From IMG/VR virus record IMGVR_UViG_3300037518_000144, positions 1-57,756 of that record: a stretch of 57,756 bases of DNA, one strand, 5' to 3'. The notes below the pieces were generated by a model. The model was given only the letters and a program-made list of their open reading frames with translations. It was not told where the DNA came from and did not search any database. This DNA comes from a virus (taxonomy: Duplodnaviria > Caudoviricetes). The position numbers and the translations under genes were made by a program. Shown one piece after another: positions 40,111 to 47,174 of this stretch. How positions within the stretch are numbered: the first letter of the stretch is position 1; each line of letters starts with the position of its first letter.

Positions 40111-41027
40111 CGGTTAAGTTCGCCGATATGAAGCTCTCTCGGATCATCCCGCAGCACGTGCATGCCGTTAAGTTTCGGTGGCTGCATCGAGACTTTATGA
40201 CGATGTCAGATCGATATCGCGAGATCCGTGCCCGTACTAGTCACCCGATGGACGCCTGCAAATGGTGCGGCTACGCATTCGCCAACGGCGATGTGATGGC
40301 TCTCGCTCAGCCAGAGAAGGGAGTGAATTGGGTGCTCTGCCAGACGTGCGCGCAGATGCTAGAAAAAAGCTCAGAGTTGGAAACGAACCTGACTCGTTTA
40401 CCAGAGGTCATTGAGGAAACATGCGCGTGGTGCAGCGGCGTCGGCCGAACCGGCTGCCCTGGAGTCGTCTGCAATTTCTGCAGCGGCGAAGGCGTCCAGC
40501 GACGCAATAGACAAGGTTGAACCGGAGAGCGCTTATGGAAACGCCAATCCTATACGACGACTACGACTATGACGACGAGTACCACGAGCGTGATGACGAG
40601 GAGGAATTCTGCTACCACTGCCAGGACCGTGGCTACATCCCGGCGATGGACTTCGAGTCAATCCAGGGCATCGAAGGATGGGCATGTGACCACTGCGATC
40701 GCGGCATAAACAGCAACTTTCCCTTCCGTCCCACTTCGAGAACCGGAGCAGACCATGGCTAAAGAAGGCGCGGGAAACCCGATCGACTGGATCAAGCGCT
40801 GTCCCGTATGCGCAGAGGCGGCTAAACAAGTGGAGCGCGAAGCTATGCAACAGAAACAGTCGGCATGGACCAAGCAGCTACTGCACTACGTGAAAACGGA
40901 AGTGCTGTATCCGGGTTCATTCAAGAACAACAGCAGCTACGCCGCCGAAGTCATCAAGGCTTTCGAGTTCGGGCACAAAGCCGGCGTGCGGTCCGCTCGT
41001 GCCAAATACTCAGCGCAGCGTCGATGA
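40107..41027 (+). other. Three small Cys-rich early genes (40107, 40517, 40755)
   Basis: CxxC motifs and coupling. Confidence 0.55.
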
Positions 41028-41036
41028 GGTGTTCTC

Positions 41037-41693
41037 ATGCGTGAATTCACAGAAGAACTGTTCCTGAAAAACGTCTCGAAGCACGTCATGACAATCCTGC
41101 GCGACGACGGAGTGCATAGGCATGTGCGGTTCAAGCAGCCAGACAGCAGCAACATGTACTTTGACATAGTCACCTATCCGCACTTCCTGGTGTACTCGGG
41201 CGACATGGGCTGCTACGTCTTCAGCCGCATCAATGACATGTTCGAGTTCTTCCGCGGCAAGAGTGAGGGGCCGCTGCGGATCAACGAGAGCTACTGGGCA
41301 GAGAAGCTTGAAGCGACCGATCGCCAGAGCGGACAAAAGGAGTACAGCGCCGACCGGTTCCGCAAATACGTGGCGGATAGATTGGAGCAGATAAAGGAAG
41401 CCCAGACGATTGACGCAGATAGCGAGGACGAAGGTCAGTCAGTCGCCGCTGCGTTCGACGAGTTCGAGCTGGCCGTCAAGGACAACGTCCTGGCCTACGC
41501 TGACGACGGTGACTTACGAGCGCACCAGGCCCTCGATGAATTCGAGCACGAGGGCAATCGCTGGTTTAGCGACAGTTGGGAAGCCAACTTCGACGAGTAC
41601 ACGTTCCGCTTCGTCTGGTGCTGCTACGCGCTTGCGTGGGCTATTCGTCAGTACGACAAATCTAAACAGACAGCTCTTAGCGGAGGAGTGTGA
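41037..41693 (+). CDS. Conserved phage hypothetical protein
   Basis: RDDGVHRHVRF..GDMG..YWAEK motif. GAGG RBS. Confidence 0.7.
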   Translation: MREFTEELFLKNVSKHVMTILRDDGVHRHVRFKQPDSSNMYFDIVTYPHFLVYSGDMGCYVFSRINDMFEFFRGKSEGPLRINESYWAEKLEATDRQSGQKEYSADRFRKYVADRLEQIKEAQTIDADSEDEGQSVAAAFDEFELAVKDNVLAYADDGDLRAHQALDEFEHEGNRWFSDSWEANFDEYTFRFVWCCYALAWAIRQYDKSKQTALSGGV

Positions 41694-41694
41694 C

Positions 41695-42846
41695 GTGCAG
41701 AAACTGACATTCAACGACTTGCTCCAGAGAACGATGACCGGGGAGGAATCGTTCTACCTCGCATCAGACGTGGGCGAAGAACTGCGCCGTGCCGCCGATG
41801 ACCGCGCGCGAAGCGACGCGCGCATTGCCGATCTTGAAAGCGCCATCCGTGTGTATGCCCGCCATCGCTCTAACTGCATGGTGCATTTCGATCAATCGTG
41901 CTCGTGCGGGTGGGAGCAAAAGAGCCGAGAACTAATGGAGAGTGAGCAGAAATGAACGAACACTACCACTACATTCTCGATGGCCATGATCCCGTAGCGG
42001 TTGACTTGATGACGTGGGAAAGATGGCGTGAGGCCAATCAAGAAAAGAAACGAGTCGCGCTGGATCAGATCAACGACACGAGAGTCTCGACCATCTTCTT
42101 TGGTTTAGATCTAAGTTTAGGCGACGGACCGCCGCTGATCTTCGAGACAATGACCTTCGGCGGTGCGCTCAGCGACGGATGCGAGCACTACTCAACATGG
42201 GCGGAAGCTGTAGCTGGGCATGCCGCCATGTGCGAACGCGTGCGTAGCGCTCAGGGCAAGGAGGATAGTCATGGCTAGATTTCATTGGCCGACGAAGAAA
42301 CAGGAGACCGCATTGAAACATCTTGCCGGTAACGCCGACGCTGGCCTGGCGCTAACGATCCCAGAAACGATTAGCGCTCTGCGCGGACAATGCCGGTGCA
42401 TAGCTCCATTCAGGGGCTGTGTAATGTGCATCGCGGCGACAATCATCGAGCGCTTTGATGCCAATGCAAAACCGCTGTCGCTTAGCCAAGCAGACCAGCT
42501 TTGTGCCGTACTCACCGACCAATTGCGAAAGATCGTTTACGAGCACGCTGGAAAATCCGAGGTAACTGAGTAAATGAGCGTCAACGAACAGGTTTTGTCT
42601 CAGATCAAGATCCTCGCCGCTCAGCGCGAGAACACAGGCAATGCGATCGAGCAACTTACCAAGCAGCTTGTGTGTGAGTGCTGTGGCGGTAACGACGATG
42701 TTGGCATCCGCCCTCTGATGTGCTGCGCACCGATCTGCCAGCACTGCTTTTACATCTGGTACGACCACGGAGAAACGGACCCGGAATGCGTACGCGATAA
42801 ATCGATTGAGAGGCAAGGTAAGGGCAAGGGAGCGAGTAATGAGTGA
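41695..42846 (+). other. Four small early genes (about 41695, 41952, 42271, 42574)
   Basis: RBS and coupling. Confidence 0.55.
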
Positions 42847-43061
42847 TCTGGTCACTGTGGCAGTTCCCCTTGAGGGATACGACGCGGAATGTCGCGCAAT
42901 CAACGCAGTGATATTCCCGGAAGTATGTACCTAACGAAACACGGTATGTAGATCCATTTTTGCTTATTTTCTGCTGATCCGAGCCAAATCCGCTGTTATG
43001 TGAAATTAGTGCCAAGTGGGAAAAACTTGCACGTCAGGTTTACTCATGTATAATGTTTCCC

Positions 43062-44036
43062 ATGACGAAGCAGACCAAAATTCAGAACCGCTCAACCAAG
43101 GGCGACAAGATCATTCAGGCTCTGCCAATTGCTTGTGCCGATGAAGCAGCAGCCGTGCTCTTCATGGAAGAACAGCGTTGGGGCTCGGATGTCTGCTGCC
43201 CCCGCTGCGGTTCGCTCGATGTCTACCAGATGCGGGACAGCAAGACCGGCCAGCGTCAGAAGAACTTCCGTTGGCTCTGCCGTGACTGCAAGAAGGCTGG
43301 CGAGAAGAGCCAGTACACCGTACGAACGGCCACCGTGTTCGAAGATTCAAAGATTGAGCTTCGTCACTGGTGCTTTGCCTTCTGGCGCGCCTCTACTTCC
43401 AAGAAGGGCGTTAGCGCCCTTGAGATACACCGCCAGACCGGCCTTGCTTACAAGTCCTGCCTGTTCATGCTCCACCGTATCCGCTTCGCGATGGCACCAG
43501 TGGACGGCAATCCATTGACCGGCATTGTCGAAGTAGACGAGACGTATGTTGGCGGCAAGCCCCGCCGTAAGTTCGATGGTTCAGTCGGCGAGCGCACTGC
43601 AAAGTCTGCTGTGCTCGGCATCGTGGAACGTGGTGGCCGCATCCGTCCAATGGTCATTGCCGACGTAACGGCTGAAACCCTCCATGCCGAAATCCTGAAG
43701 AACGTAGACCGTCGCGCCCGCATCATGACGGACGAGCACGTGAGCTACACCGGCATCGGCAAGCACTTCGAAGGCGGTCACGAGACGGTCAAGCACAGCG
43801 CCTACGAGTACGCACGCGGCGATGTCACCACGAACACCATCGAAGGCTTCTTCTCAATCCTGAAGCGCGGCCTTAACGGCATCTACCACAGCGTCAGCAA
43901 GAAACACTTGCACAGGTACCTTGCGGAATATGAGTTCAGGTACAACCACAGGGAGCTTGATGACGGCGCAAGAACCTCAGCCGCTATCAAAGCATCAGAA
44001 GGCAAGCGCCTGATGTATAAAGGACCGGCTGGTTAA
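43062..44036 (+). CDS. tnp: IS1595-family (ISXO2-like) DDE transposase
   Basis: Zn ribbon CPRCG..CRDC, VEVDETYVGG, IMTDE, NTIEGFFS, HLHRYLAEYEFRYN. TTGCAC-16-TATAAT promoter at 43027-54. Confidence 0.95.
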   Translation: MTKQTKIQNRSTKGDKIIQALPIACADEAAAVLFMEEQRWGSDVCCPRCGSLDVYQMRDSKTGQRQKNFRWLCRDCKKAGEKSQYTVRTATVFEDSKIELRHWCFAFWRASTSKKGVSALEIHRQTGLAYKSCLFMLHRIRFAMAPVDGNPLTGIVEVDETYVGGKPRRKFDGSVGERTAKSAVLGIVERGGRIRPMVIADVTAETLHAEILKNVDRRARIMTDEHVSYTGIGKHFEGGHETVKHSAYEYARGDVTTNTIEGFFSILKRGLNGIYHSVSKKHLHRYLAEYEFRYNHRELDDGARTSAAIKASEGKRLMYKGPAG

Positions 44037-44063
44037 TGAACAGCGTTTGTGCCACGATAGGTA

Positions 44064-44178
44064 TACGGGTGGCGGGATACGAACCCGCATGGGGTTGCTT
44101 GGGGGAGGCGCGAACCGTCCCTAGCAAGAGCCCGGCAGCGTCCAAAGCTGCTGTGTCTACCAGTTTCACCACACCCGC
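44064..44178 (-). tRNA. Atypical tRNA: Leu-like body, UGG (Pro) anticodon, ~46-nt variable arm
   Basis: Acceptor GCGGGTG/CACCCGT-A; D arm GTG-AAACTGGTAGA-CAC; anticodon arm GCAGC-TTTGGAC-GCTGC; T arm GCGGG-TTCGTAT-CCCGC. No encoded CCA. Confidence 0.75.
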
Positions 44179-44205
44179 ACAGAGAGTGCTCAAACGCTCT
44201 CGGGT

Positions 44206-44257
44206 CAGGGTGTGGAGGGGTCATGGCCGCGAAACCTTACCCTCCACACCCTGCTTT
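44206..44257. other. 14-bp perfect hairpin next to the tRNA 5' end
   Basis: CAGGGTGTGGAGGG / CCCTCCACACCCTG followed by CTTTT. Confidence 0.6.
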
Positions 44258-44298
44258 TACGGCCGCCGGGTCGGCCTATCTACTTATCATCATAATCC

Positions 44299-44781
44299 TC
44301 ACTCCTTTGCTCGCTGGGCGGCCAATCGTTTCTCGATTGCACTAATTGCATCCGGCAGATGTCTCTTCATTTTCCAGAACCTGCCCTGTCCTGTTCTTTT
44401 GTTGTCGTAGACTTGGCTTGGATTGAGACCACAGTCCACGATAAGCCGATTAATTATGGCGCTACGTCCACCAAGTGCTTTCGGCATAGTGATGCCCAAA
44501 GCTGCCATCATCGTTCCCGACCCAGCCCCCTGCGGTCCGGCGTCTCGAATTGCTTTCAAAAAAGCGATTGCAGCAATTGGAGTCCAGTCCGGGAAGCTGC
44601 CTTCTGGCTCATCCTCGGTACGCGGTTGTTTGTTTGCGTGGATGATCGGCGCTCGCGCTGCCGATGGAGGCGGCACAGTGCTGGCGTTCCGAAGCTGTCG
44701 ATACAACTCGGCGGCTTCTGCAGCTGTGGCTGCTTCGAATTCCATTCCATCAAAATTGAGTTTGATACCCATGCTTGCCAT
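44299..44781 (-). CDS. Hypothetical passenger protein (possible winged-helix C-terminus)
   Basis: 160-aa ORF with protein-like composition. Confidence 0.6.
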   Translation of the reverse strand: MASMGIKLNFDGMEFEAATAAEAAELYRQLRNASTVPPPSAARAPIIHANKQPRTEDEPEGSFPDWTPIAAIAFLKAIRDAGPQGAGSGTMMAALGITMPKALGGRSAIINRLIVDCGLNPSQVYDNKRTGQGRFWKMKRHLPDAISAIEKRLAAQRAKE

Positions 44782-44833
44782 GCTATCAGGAACTTCTGGT
44801 ACAGAGCAAGCTCAAGACATGACATGAGAGTAC

Positions 44834-44998
44834 ATGATGCCGCCAGAGCCACAGAAGCGATCAAGAACAAAGAAGCGCGGGCCACCGCCTGATCGGGTAA
44901 AGATCAAAGGCGACTGGACGGAAGCAATGAAGAAAGCTCTAGAGAAAAAGCGCCCTACTGGCGGCTGGCCGGAGCCTGAGAAGAAGCCGAGTAAGTAA
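44834..44998 (+). CDS. Small basic passenger protein, 54 aa
   Basis: GPPPDRVKIKGDWTEAMKKALEKKRPTGGWP. Below the ORF-track cutoff. Confidence 0.55.
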   Translation: MMPPEPQKRSRTKKRGPPPDRVKIKGDWTEAMKKALEKKRPTGGWPEPEKKPSK

Positions 44999-45157
44999 GC
45001 TCTTCGCGCAACACCTTAACTTCATCAGGTGCGGAAATACCGATTCGAACGCTCACCAGTCCGCTGCCCGCATGCTCGATGATGCGAGTTACGGTTAGGG
45101 TGATGTCTTTGCCGATCTGAATGGATTCGCCGGGAACGGCCGGGAAAGGATGAGCAT
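44955..45157 (-). pseudogene. csrA: csrA/rsmA homolog, frameshifted
   Basis: GGAGG RBS and MLILSR, then GESIQIGKDITLTV..VRIGISAPDEVKVLREEL in another frame. Confidence 0.8.
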
Positions 45158-45302
45158 AGAACCTCCGTGTTCGAGTGAAACCGATTCATAAATCGCGGGT
45201 GACTATGCTACAGTGCGCCGCGTTACGCCTCCCGCTTCTTCCCTCCGGTCGGGCGCGGGTGAGCGTAACGAGAGATTTGCAGCTTGTAAAGCTCCAGACA
45301 AC

Positions 45303-45328
45303 AAAAAACCCGCCGAAGCGGGTTCTTT
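45303..45328. terminator. Terminator-like hairpin immediately 5' of the tRNA
   Basis: AAAAAACCCGC-CGAA-GCGGGTTCTTT. Confidence 0.6.
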
Positions 45329-45330
45329 GC

Positions 45331-45420
45331 GGTCAGGTGGCAGAGTGGTCGAATGCAACTTCCTCGCACGGAATTTCGCTTTTGGCGACGCCGCAGGTTC
45401 GAATCCTGTCCTGACCTCCA
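45331..45420 (+). tRNA. Atypical tRNA: Ser-like class II body, CGC (Ala) anticodon, U73
   Basis: Acceptor GGTCAGG/CCTGACC-T-CCA; D arm GCA-GAGTGGTCGAA-TGC; loop CT-CGC-AC on a weak stem; variable arm TCGC-TTTTG-GCGA; T arm GCAGG-TTCGAAT-CCTGT. Confidence 0.78.
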
Positions 45421-45426
45421 CATCCT

Positions 45427-45457
45427 ACCGCCCCGAACTTCTTAGGGGCGGTCTTTT
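45427..45457 (+). terminator. Intrinsic terminator after the tRNA
   Basis: ACCGCCCC/GGGGCGGT followed by CTTTT. Confidence 0.7.
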
Positions 45458-45620
45458 AATCTACCAGCGTTTTCGTCTCTTGCCACGTTACGTTTTACGT
45501 ACCGTGCGATTCGTCACACCACTTCTCAACAGCAACAGTATATTCAACACGAGCCAGAGAGCAATAGTTTAATTGCCGTTAATCTTGCTTATTCTCTCTT
45601 AACGTCTAATATTGCCAGCT

Positions 45621-45839
45621 ATGGCCAAGGTTCAGCGGTTTTTCGATGATCGCGACGTTACCCTGAAGGTCAACGACACGATCTACGAGTATCTGGAAGA
45701 CCTTGGAAAGACGGGCCTATACGGCAATACTCACGGCCAAGCCGCCGAAATCGTTCTCCGGATAGGACTCAAGCAACTGATTGACTCGGGGCAACTGAAA
45801 CCCAAGGAGCATCAGCTGGCAAGGGAAGCTGGGAGCTAG
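45621..45839 (+). CDS. Small putative RHH-like regulator
   Basis: Beta-alpha-alpha pattern (VTLKV..YLEDL..GLYG..AAE). Upstream of the TA pair. Confidence 0.55.
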   Translation: MAKVQRFFDDRDVTLKVNDTIYEYLEDLGKTGLYGNTHGQAAEIVLRIGLKQLIDSGQLKPKEHQLAREAGS

Positions 45840-45856
45840 CTAACGGTGGAGCGCCT

Positions 45857-46405
45857 ATGATTTTCACCGCAAGTAAAGTAGCCCAAATGGCCGCCGTATT
45901 CGCCCGCAAGGAAGGTGGCGCGATCAATGTCCTGAAACTCGCGAAGCTCCTCTATCTCGCAGATCGCGAATCGATGAATCGATATTCTGCGCCGATTTCA
46001 TTCGACAAGTTTGTCGCTTTGAAGGATGGGCCTATGTTGTCAAAGGCCCGCGATCTTGTTCAGGGAAAGATCGTGTCGGAGGCGTGGTCTTATTGGATGT
46101 CGCCACGCAAGGGACTAAATGTCGCGCTCGCACACGAGTTTACCCGTGACGATCTGGACCAACTGAGTGATGCAGATTTAGAAATTCTGGACTCAGTTTG
46201 GGACGAACTTGGAGCGATGGATCGCTTCGAGTTGCGGGACTACGTTCACGAGCATTGCCCCGAGTGGAAGAATCCTGGCGATACATCAAAGCCGATAAAC
46301 GAGGCAGAAATATTTAGAGCGCTCGGCCTGCCCGCAGCGGAAGCGAAAAACATGGCGGAGTCAGTTCGAATTGAGCGCAGACTCGATAGGATTTTCGGAC
46401 GCTAG
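45857..46405 (+). CDS. Panacea-domain (SocA/DUF4065) antitoxin
   Basis: KLAKLLYLADR..GP..LS..D.EIL..H..PEW. Confidence 0.85.
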   Translation: MIFTASKVAQMAAVFARKEGGAINVLKLAKLLYLADRESMNRYSAPISFDKFVALKDGPMLSKARDLVQGKIVSEAWSYWMSPRKGLNVALAHEFTRDDLDQLSDADLEILDSVWDELGAMDRFELRDYVHEHCPEWKNPGDTSKPINEAEIFRALGLPAAEAKNMAESVRIERRLDRIFGR

Positions 46406-46414
46406 TCGGACCCC

Positions 46415-46801
46415 ATGTTCGTTGCTAGGAAACGGGGAACATTGTTGTATCCCGCCGGACCTTCGACTAATCCACATGAGATGCACTTGTTTGTGATCGT
46501 GACGGAGCCTTACGGGCCAGCCCGACAACTCATCATGCTGCCGATATGCAGTATCGAAGACGGTAAGTTTCACGACCCGGCCTGCATCATCCACGTTGGG
46601 GACCACAAATTCATTAAGTGGCCGAGTTACGTTGCTTACTCCAAAGTCAGGGAGGAATTTGCGGATGGGCTTGCAAAGGGCGTTGCGAATGGTGGCGTCT
46701 CAGATCGCGGACTGATCGACGAGGTAGTCTTCGATCGCATCTTGTCAGGGGCGAAAGTAACAAAGCACATCAAGCCATTCGCCAAGAAGAAGCTTGCTTG
46801 A
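46415..46801 (+). CDS. Putative PemK/MazF-like toxin
   Basis: HLFVIVT..PICS..DPACII..GDH.FI..SYV.Y, SH3-barrel-like. Directly downstream of Panacea. Confidence 0.55.
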   Translation: MFVARKRGTLLYPAGPSTNPHEMHLFVIVTEPYGPARQLIMLPICSIEDGKFHDPACIIHVGDHKFIKWPSYVAYSKVREEFADGLAKGVANGGVSDRGLIDEVVFDRILSGAKVTKHIKPFAKKKLA

Positions 46802-47174
46802 ACCAGCAAACGCCACCCGGTGCTGGAAAACGGGCAATGTGGGGAAAGCCGGGCCACCCCAGAACCGCAGAAAATTCGTCCCGCCGCTCCACAGCTCGCG
46901 CTAGTAGCCACCGGGCCGCGAGCCCACCCACCATCCAGTGCTCATACAGTGCTTGGCGAAGTGGGAAATCCCTCCCGCATCCCACCTTTCCGGCAGGCAT
47001 CTTTGTAGATGCCTAAATGTACCTTAACCCGTTGATTCTATATGGGGTTTCGTTAGGTACATACTTCCGCGAAGTTGATCTACCGCCGGCTCTTCAGTAT
47101 TGGACCGAGCGCATGGAAGAAATCCGGGATTGGCAAGCGCGTAGAGCGGCAAATCAACCCAAACCGGAGCAGTC

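Follow-up and report, generated by a model that had tools for sequence, protein, structure and literature searches.

Class II tRNAs whose anticodon does not match the body that carries it are already known, as the allo-tRNAs of bacteria, the nev-tRNAs of nematodes and a number of engineered variants. The nematode nev-tRNAs place a non-cognate anticodon on a class II body of the leucine or serine type. Also known are insertion sequences that encode a structured RNA partner, namely IS110 with its bridge RNA and IS200/IS605 with its omega RNA; to our knowledge, no RNA partner has been reported for a DDE transposase of the IS1595 type. Allo-tRNAs occur in Acidobacteria and other bacteria, lie near toxin-antitoxin and transposon genes, and through their mismatched anticodons insert serine at leucine codons in Escherichia coli (PMC5389517, partial text). 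Engineered and human anticodon variants of tRNA-Leu and tRNA-Ser likewise mistranslate, the synthetase ignoring the anticodon (PMC11028032, partial text).

The locus analyzed here lies in a window of 57,756 nt, the whole stretch of DNA under study, which is an entire 57.8-kb virus record with phage genes. These include structural genes for a portal, large terminase, major head, head closure, tailspike and ejection protein, together with an Erf-like annealing protein, an exonuclease, a replication-initiation protein, a repressor-like protein and an endolysin. Within it is a tRNA gene that belongs to a family of its own. Members of this family resemble allo-tRNAs in being class II molecules with a long variable arm and an anticodon mismatched to the body, in being rare and patchily distributed in soil and sediment bacteria and phages, in lying near toxin-antitoxin and transposon genes, and in the proposal that they act as missense or nonsense suppressors or as regulatory RNAs (PMC5389517, partial text). 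However, allo-tRNAs are built with 8/4 or 9/3 acceptor/T stems and have serine identity, whereas the window tRNA has a 7/5 layout and a tRNA-Leu body (PMC5389517, partial text). What sets the family apart is this 7/5 leucine body combined with a proline-type (NGG) anticodon, variable arms of up to 46 nt, and a specific linkage to an IS1595-type transposase. The nev-tRNAs and the engineered or human variants share with the family a non-cognate anticodon on a class II body, but they are eukaryotic or engineered, lie off mobile elements and lack an extended variable arm (for the engineered and human variants, PMC11028032, partial text). The features of the window tRNA gene are as follows.

44064 to 44178, minus strand: class II tRNA-Leu-like gene with anticodon UGG, A37 and A73 (Rfam, family model R1, folding)
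44142 to 44144, minus strand: anticodon UGG (CCA on the plus strand) in the loop UUUGGAC (sequence and Rfam alignment)
44089 to 44134, minus strand: variable region of 46 nt, an extended irregular hairpin (RNAfold, -18.2 kcal/mol, z -2.5 against shuffles)
44079, minus strand: U58 in the T loop UUCGUAU (alignment of relatives; contigs of other runs)

This is a genuine, structurally sound class II tRNA gene, and the original prediction had both its coordinates and its anatomy right. The gene spans 115 nt on the minus strand, with its 5' end at 44178 and A73 at 44064. Rfam model RF00005 (gathering score 29) aligns to 44178-44064 across model positions 1-71 of 71 at 47.2 bits (E 5.4e-07), with 44 inserted bases falling within the variable region; ARAGORN, run on the window, made no call for this tRNA. 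The family model R1, built from relatives, scores it at 80.3 bits, as against 32 bits for the next match in the window, another tRNA, so that the window tRNA is more than a chance match. Although RNAfold on its own recovers the acceptor, anticodon, T and variable-arm helices, the folding energy of the whole molecule is ordinary (z -1.13; 30 of 200 shuffles are as good), and folding energy alone is therefore no evidence; the case is carried by the covariance models and the relatives. All stems are paired, as had been predicted: the acceptor GCGGGUG/CACCCGU forms 7 pairs, including the G1.U72 wobble, and the D stem has three Watson-Crick pairs plus A13.A22, as in class II leucine tRNAs. The anticodon stem GCAGC/GCUGC closes a 7-nt loop that reads UU-UGG-AC in the sequence and the Rfam alignment, matching the loop reported at the outset, and the T arm is GCGGG-UUCGUAU-CCCGC, with no encoded CCA after the discriminator. 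The acceptor and T stems thus have the canonical 7 bp and 5 bp, and not the 8/4 or 9/3 arrangement. The variable arm, earlier described as an extended hairpin of about 46 nt, refolded with the three helices then named (GGG/CCC, UUGCU/AGCAA and GGGA/UCCC) and with an additional apical helix of 3 bp.

Judged by its sequence, the window tRNA appears to have descended from a tRNA-Leu and now carries the anticodon UGG. With bacterial tRNA-Leu it shares the D arm, A73, C2-G71 and a long variable arm; it differs in having UGG in place of NAG or NAA, in U58, and in a variable region of 46 nt as compared with 13-19 nt, by hand count, in ten host tRNA-Leu genes. The Leu-like character of its 5' end and discriminator, noted in the original prediction, is borne out by blastn against phages, in which five of the seven records matching the 5' part of the gene are annotated tRNA-Leu, and the D arm of the family is near-identical to that of tRNA-Leu (GUGGYGRAAYUGGUAGAC). 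An isotype comparison, which that prediction had proposed, was made by scoring two carrier genomes, both bacterial, with the family model. The members scored 80-86.5 bits, apart from a degenerate copy with a long arm, at 57.6; the host tRNA-Leu genes, ten in all with five anticodons per genome, scored 67.8-78.6 bits, host tRNA-Ser 47-52 bits, and class I tRNAs, including the canonical tRNA-Pro(UGG), about 44 bits and below. The top rank of the family under its own model is circular, but the order among host tRNAs is not, and that order places tRNA-Leu above both tRNA-Ser and tRNA-Pro(UGG). In E. coli, leucine identity consists of A73 and the tertiary core including U54:A58, without the anticodon or the variable arm (PMC9976931, partial text), in agreement with the premise of the original prediction that LeuRS largely disregards the anticodon. 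Among these leucine features, the window tRNA has A73 and, by similarity to annotated phage and host tRNA-Leu, the D arm and core, comprising a 3-bp D stem, A14, the G18G19 placement and A20a, and it lacks the U54:A58 T-loop pair as well as an NAG or NAA anticodon.

The resemblance to tRNA-Pro(UGG) is confined to the anticodon and A73. Both carrier genomes hold a canonical tRNA-Pro(UGG), a class I molecule of 74 nt with C1-G72 and G37, which confirms in these hosts the C1-G72, G37 and short arm that had been given as the norm for tRNA-Pro; the window tRNA shares none of these. Because the canonical gene is present in both genomes, the family member is an extra tRNA beside the host set. In one of them, the Leu-like UGG gene is followed, 8 nt on, by a Leu-like gene with the anticodon UUA.

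Relatives were collected with a search pattern combining the Leu-type D loop, the loop segment UUGGA and the T loop. This returned 22 loci from viral contigs, of which 4 were tRNA-like, 31 loci from contigs of one genome per species, and 107 loci from metagenomes. After parsing, 100 of 115 distinct Leu-body/UGG tRNAs were kept as well formed and 15 were dropped, the filter being at least 6 of 7 acceptor pairs and at least 4 of 5 anticodon-stem pairs; the pairing figures for these two helices are thereby inflated. Carrier MAGs are labelled Acidobacteriota/Terriglobia, Bryobacteraceae, Planctomycetota, Alpha- and Gammaproteobacteria, Gemmatimonadaceae and others. The family is thus widespread in phages, MAGs of several phyla and metagenomes, and it is apparently undescribed: the literature within reach, that is, outside supplements and subscription journals, described neither a tRNA-Leu(UGG) occurring naturally in bacteria or phages nor any link between IS1595 elements and tRNAs. 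It is also rare and patchy, with a tRNA-like match in 2 of 401 genomes of one carrier's phylum when the matched sequences were read by eye. Blastn of the window tRNA against E. coli genomes gave no match.

The family is under selection at the RNA level. Across the 85 members that were aligned, pairing holds in 97.2% of cells, compared with 68.2% in shuffles and 41-48% with slid partners, and 21 of 24 pairs show changes on both sides, which amounts to strong covariation throughout the cloverleaf. Covariation among homologs had been named at the outset as a check on the gene, and the suggestion made then that intact pairing speaks against simple decay holds at the level of the family. U8 is invariant, A58 is present in 83 of the 85 and all loops have 7 nt; in the set of 100, A73 is found in 96 and an encoded CCA in 31. 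Retention of A73, CCA, U8, A58 and the 7-nt loops means that features needed only by a chargeable tRNA have been kept. The variable region, on the other hand, is hypervariable in both length and sequence, with a bimodal length distribution (16-21 nt in 57 members, 25-46 nt in 43) of which the window tRNA is the upper extreme. Structure predominates among the 43 extended arms (mean z -1.6; 18 below -2), which recurrently show a basal stem, an inner hairpin and 3-6 unpaired nt on the 3' side. Whatever its role, the family offers tRNA engineering a set of natural class II scaffolds with the 7/5 layout in which variable arms of 25-46 nt are accommodated. A standard caller sees the family incompletely, as ARAGORN called 67 of the 100 members but missed all those whose variable region reaches 29 nt.

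The reading we favor, with a probability of about 0.4, is that the window feature is a mobile missense suppressor charged by LeuRS and reading CCA and CCG. On the sequence evidence this is the most likely role, next to a substantial chance that the RNA serves the transposase. The original prediction, which had raised leucine insertion at CCA and CCG codons or else a non-translating mimic, is thereby supported in part. Host tRNA-processing enzymes would trim the transcript and the CCA-adding enzyme would supply the CCA; LeuRS would then recognize A73 and the Leu-type D arm and core, not the anticodon or the variable arm; and U34 would read CCA and CCG, so that leucine would enter at some proline codons in competition with the host tRNA-Pro, resulting in low-level substitution. 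By the same logic, a UUA anticodon, as in sister genes, would decode UAA stop codons. The oversized arm, which points away from LeuRS, could simply be tolerated as an extension, could shield the tRNA from other synthetases or could offer a handle for protein binding; being long, it would leave the class I LeuRS undisturbed and could hinder class II enzymes. The tRNA would travel as the cargo of a small mobile unit found in the company of toxin-antitoxin and regulator genes, much as allo-tRNAs may do. If the family is indeed charged with leucine, mobile elements and phages would be spreading ready-made Pro-to-Leu decoders, and in the sister genes stop-to-Leu decoders, across phyla, adding a natural source of deliberate mistranslation to those represented by the allo-tRNAs and by the ProX system of Streptomyces. 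Several features sit less easily with the proposal. A37 in place of m1G37 beside G36 is unusual for a reader of CCN codons. In 36 long ORFs of the phage, CCA and CCG make up 353 of 511 proline codons (69%), with no sign of their avoidance, and with such heavy use efficient Pro-to-Leu decoding would harm the phage's own proteins. The leucine-suppressor reading is further weakened by G1.U72 and by U58, which breaks the U54:A58 pair listed as important for E. coli leucine identity (PMC9976931, partial text), and a search upstream of the gene gave no sigma-70-like promoter. No RNA run was found to contain the stretch 42900-45500.

The most serious competing account is that the RNA, or the gene as DNA, is a working part of a transposase unit and not an adaptor in translation, whether as a structured RNA cofactor or regulator, as an antisense partner of the transposase 3' UTR, or as a DNA end or target mark near tRNA genes. 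It derives from the gene next to the tRNA:

43053 to 44036, plus strand: IS1595-family DDE transposase with an N-terminal zinc ribbon (Pfam PF12762, 2e-40, and PF12760)

This protein scores 186 bits against NCBIfam NF033547 (cut-off 75), and its second ATG, at 43062, lies just after a TATAAT sequence (43049-43054). Its stop codon is 28 nt from the 3' end of the tRNA, the two genes being convergent. Across 38 aligned tRNA-linked transposases, D162, D227, N261, E264 and the four zinc-ribbon cysteines are invariant. Clustering of the ORFs around the 100 family tRNAs found a transposase in 58 loci, and a transposase HMM found a match within 4 kb in 61; only 6 of the 39 loci lacking one have at least 2 kb of upstream and 1.3 kb of downstream sequence. 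In two carrier genomes, all 4 family loci but none of the 10 canonical tRNA-Leu loci have a transposase next to them. Blocks of nucleotide homology between loci begin 0-45 nt before the tRNA and end just past the transposase, with unrelated flanks, as in the pairs L305/L317 (89% identity over -5 to +1296) and L296/L311 (0 to +1166). In a quick maximum-likelihood tree of 112 transposases, the clade that includes the window protein comprises 28 linked and 2 unlinked rows (SH-aLRT 99), and linkage changes label 11 times, versus 37 in shuffles. Linkage even outlasts rearrangement within the window subclade, where the tRNA is convergent in the window and L295 and lies upstream on the same strand in L365. 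The linkage of tRNA and transposase is thus specific and heritable, and the shared blocks indicate that the tRNA family probably moves between phages and bacteria together with its transposase gene. A pure cargo model leaves so tight a linkage unexplained. Two other observations point the same way, namely the hypervariability of the variable arm and the position of 16 of 98 units within 90 nt downstream of another tRNA 3' end, whether of a complete gene or a fragment, compared with 2 of 84 for a control window.

The partnership is nevertheless imperfect. Viral contigs hold at least 557 relatives of the transposase, and among the best 80 of these, 12 lie beside a strong class II tRNA of the Leu-like type; the tRNA is missing from about half of the closest viral relatives, and at least 6 tRNAs have no transposase, so that neither strictly needs the other. 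In one complete phage record (L010), a fragment of 105 aa is all that is left of the transposase, yet the tRNA has stayed intact and retains A58 and CCA. Layout varies as well, with the transposase downstream on the opposite strand, as in the window, at 37 loci, downstream on the same strand at 9 and upstream at 15, and with the gap between the transposase stop and the tRNA 3' end ranging from 5 to 197 nt in 32 convergent loci. Like the units of IS110 and IS200/IS605, those of the family combine a compact transposase gene with a conserved structured RNA gene at the unit edge, but the RNAs of those elements are not tRNAs and act through guide-target complementarity, of which none was found for the family variable arms. 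Comparison of the inner variable arm with 300 nt upstream and 1500 nt downstream at 42 loci gave complementarity at the level of shuffles, the mean longest match being 7.8 nt versus 7.45 nt, and the only long match, of 26 nt (L263, on a contig of 1 kb), seems to reflect an inverted duplication; the idea of a guide RNA was rejected on these grounds. Nor were terminal inverted repeats involving the tRNA or its flank detected, as searches around the unit and with the 5' part of the tRNA returned chance-level matches only (z about 0), and no repeats above chance marked a target-site duplication bounding the unit. When the window's left end was aligned by hand with the 5' end of the tRNA, the resulting match failed to generalize. 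Finally, the conserved A73, anticodon loops of 7 nt that carry sense or stop anticodons, and a CCA encoded in 31 of 100 members fit a charged decoder better than a transposase component. We regard a role within the transposase unit as a minority possibility, though one to be taken seriously; if borne out, it would represent the first tRNA-shaped partner of a DDE transposase. A connection of another kind, in which the tRNA recodes its own transposase, was discarded, as the conserved proline columns are also proline in 62 tRNA-less relatives and no column shows a P/L swap.

A second alternative concerns the window copy and not the family, and holds that this copy is a crippled passenger, useless to the phage and already beginning to decay, whatever its relatives may do. 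It arises from the places where the window tRNA departs from its family. Position 58 is U where 83 of 85 aligned relatives have A, and the first acceptor pair is G1.U72, which is G1-C72 in its nearest relatives. In two further sediment runs, contigs carry an identical tRNA, with 0 differences and including U58 and U72, and these bases are thus not an assembly slip; they suggest that the window copy may be a weakened member of the family. It also lacks an encoded CCA, has the longest variable arm of the 100, shares an accessory region with an insertion-sequence gene, and has upstream of it no sigma-70-like promoter that a search could find. Yet every helix is paired, the score of 80.3 bits lies within the range of intact members, and CCA is likewise missing from the close relatives L286, L306 and L294. 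The adjoining transposase is full length and retains its catalytic residues, so the insertion looks young. The same sequence is also present in three other sediment DNA runs, though these may sample one phage population. We consider decay of this copy rather unlikely on balance, and it would be compatible with any function at the level of the family. Comparisons at the locus itself gave no DNA match to 41000-47000 and no empty site in five kin phage records, and neither a joint across the tRNA-transposase unit nor an empty site in contigs of four DNA runs.

An unlikely third account has the tRNA charged with proline, alone or alongside leucine, and hence acting as an extra tRNA-Pro(UGG), harmless or useful to a phage rich in CCA and CCG. 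It would explain why the phage tolerates the gene, given that these codons form more than two-thirds of its proline codons. ProRS, a class II enzyme, approaches tRNA from the side of the variable loop, where an arm of 46 nt should be an obstacle. The identity elements of E. coli tRNA-Pro are G72, G35, G36, A73, G37 and G15-C48, with C1-G72 a strong determinant (PMC9976931, partial text); the window tRNA has three of those listed, G35, G36 and A73, but carries U72, lacks G37 and the short class I variable loop of all known tRNA-Pro, and has a D arm and core of the leucine type. The missing features do occur sporadically in the family, C1-G72 in 7 of 85 aligned relatives and G37 in one of the 12 tRNAs found from their transposases. 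Of those 12 tRNAs, which were identified by way of the transposase and not of the loop, 8 have UGG, including the one with G37, 2 have AGG, although the stem of one of these pairs poorly, and one each has GGA and UUA. As apparent NGG loops make up 10 of the 12, the proline-type anticodon is a trait of the family and not only a product of the search pattern; however, sister tRNAs with UUA or GGA would not be proline acceptors by their anticodon.

More improbable still, and a long shot by our estimate, is a stronger version of the transposase account, in which an IS1595-type clade recruited a tRNA-Leu-derived RNA as an obligate partner that controls or directs transposition, making the unit a tRNA-dependent DNA transposon. 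With an NGG loop and an arm that can grow, the RNA would act as a ligand of the transposase, and perhaps of a small basic protein with a GDW...GWP motif (below) as well, and might steer insertion, for example, to sites just downstream of tRNA genes. Such an element would constitute a new class of RNA-assisted mobile element. An attP remnant was rejected because the gene is a complete, covarying tRNA, and no integrase was recovered from 37 distinct ORFs by PHROGs or Pfam.

The leucine-charged suppressor, as the preferred reading, would sit within a small mobile unit whose further neighbors are as follows.

44206 to 44253: perfect inverted repeat of 14 bp, lying between the upstream ORF and the 5' end of the tRNA (repeat search and sequence)
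44299 to 44781, minus strand: ORF of 160 aa directly upstream of the tRNA, on the same strand (translation)
44834 to 44998, plus strand: basic ORF of 54 aa with the motif ...KGDWxxAMKKALEKKRPxGGWP (six-frame motif scans)

The inverted repeat is followed on the plus strand by CTTTTA and, as far as its sequence indicates, may terminate transposase transcripts running antisense through the tRNA. No match to the 160-aa ORF was found in Pfam, PHROG, PADLOC or NCBIfam, and family searches with the 54-aa ORF also gave none. Relatives of the latter, with the motif GPKPxxLKIxGDWxxAVKKSLxKKKPxxGWP, are nevertheless present at 14 other family loci of the 100, the window being the 15th; in viral loci they occur at 1 of 12 that are tRNA-linked and at 0 of 68 transposase loci without a tRNA. 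Upstream of or near some family loci are genes for XRE-HTH/Peptidase_M78 (9), SecB-like (3) and XRE (3) proteins and for an IS1-like transposase (4), and the window itself has a Panacea/SocA-domain gene with a partner ORF at 45857-46801. Such surroundings resemble those described for allo-tRNAs (PMC5389517, partial text).

Among the points absent from the original prediction, beside U58 and the IS1595-linked family, is a second class II tRNA with a mismatched anticodon, 1.2 kb from the window's UGG tRNA. This gene, at 45331-45420, has a Ser-like D arm, the anticodon CGC and an encoded CCA, and a pattern scan of viral contigs found no relatives of it. The anticodon-mismatched tRNA bodies seen are thus of the Leu-like and Ser-like types only, whose synthetases ignore the anticodon.

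The window carries, besides the UGG tRNA, a second class II tRNA that was recovered with both ARAGORN and Rfam, and the two odd tRNAs share one common accessory region with a pair of genes, the first of which encodes an antitoxin-like protein.

45331-45420, + strand, second class II tRNA (ARAGORN, Rfam)
45857-46405, + strand, antitoxin-like gene with a Panacea/SocA domain (Pfam, 1.7e-20)
46415-46801, + strand, 128-aa ORF of PHROG 19071, following the Panacea/SocA gene

The second tRNA, with a Ser-like D arm (GCAGAGUGGUCGAAUGC) and a CGC anticodon (Ala codon GCG), is labeled tRNA-Ala by ARAGORN and scores 45 bits with Rfam. It has U73 and an encoded CCA, its anticodon stem contains a single C.A mismatch, and terminator-like hairpins flank the gene; a pattern scan of viral contigs returned no relatives of this Ser-like CGC tRNA. 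The Panacea/SocA gene and the PHROG 19071 ORF (together 45857-46801) probably constitute a toxin-antitoxin pair.

Upstream of the IS1595-family transposase gene lies a promoter-like element:

43027-43064, TTGCAC, 16-nt spacer and TATAAT, extending to the second ATG (43062)

Because the TATAAT motif overlaps the first ATG of the transposase gene at 43053 and a second ATG is located at 43062, the transposase mRNA may be leaderless, starting from this second ATG. In relatives, a palindrome, ACTTGA..TCAAGT, is retained across the corresponding promoter region.

At several loci, Leu-like or class II tRNAs with a UUA anticodon, which would read the UAA stop codon in the case described first, accompany the UGG tRNA or the transposase. 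In an alphaproteobacterial MAG (L445/L447; G011:C2:2235499-2235676), a Leu-like tRNA(UGG) is followed 8 nt on by a Leu-like tRNA(UUA), and the tandem adjoins an IS1595-type transposase. Locus L260 has a UGG tRNA with a class II UUA tRNA alongside; at L392, a viral locus, a Leu-like UUA tRNA lies next to a transposase relative.

Among viral contigs, tRNA-Leu-type D arms were also found with GUU (five loci), GCC or UUC anticodons, as assigned by an automated parse (L040, L051, L069, L097, L135, L054 and L141), some with variable regions of 28-42 nt; foreign anticodons on Leu-like bodies may be a wider phenomenon among phages. A Leu-like tRNA at L013:774-882 carries ~27 additional bases within the anticodon loop region, the loop being intron-like or degenerate. 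Two kin phages with 88-89% portal identity, L223 and L224, encode a distinct, 123-nt Leu-like tRNA look-alike (L223:1501-1623 and L224:1501-1623) that has no counterpart in the window at the corresponding place. This look-alike combines the acceptor CGAACCG with a non-canonical anticodon arm (CCCU-CAAAUAGC-AGGG) and a variable region of ~53 nt; its encoded CCA overlaps the ATG of the next ORF, and the portal gene lies ~2.2 kb downstream.
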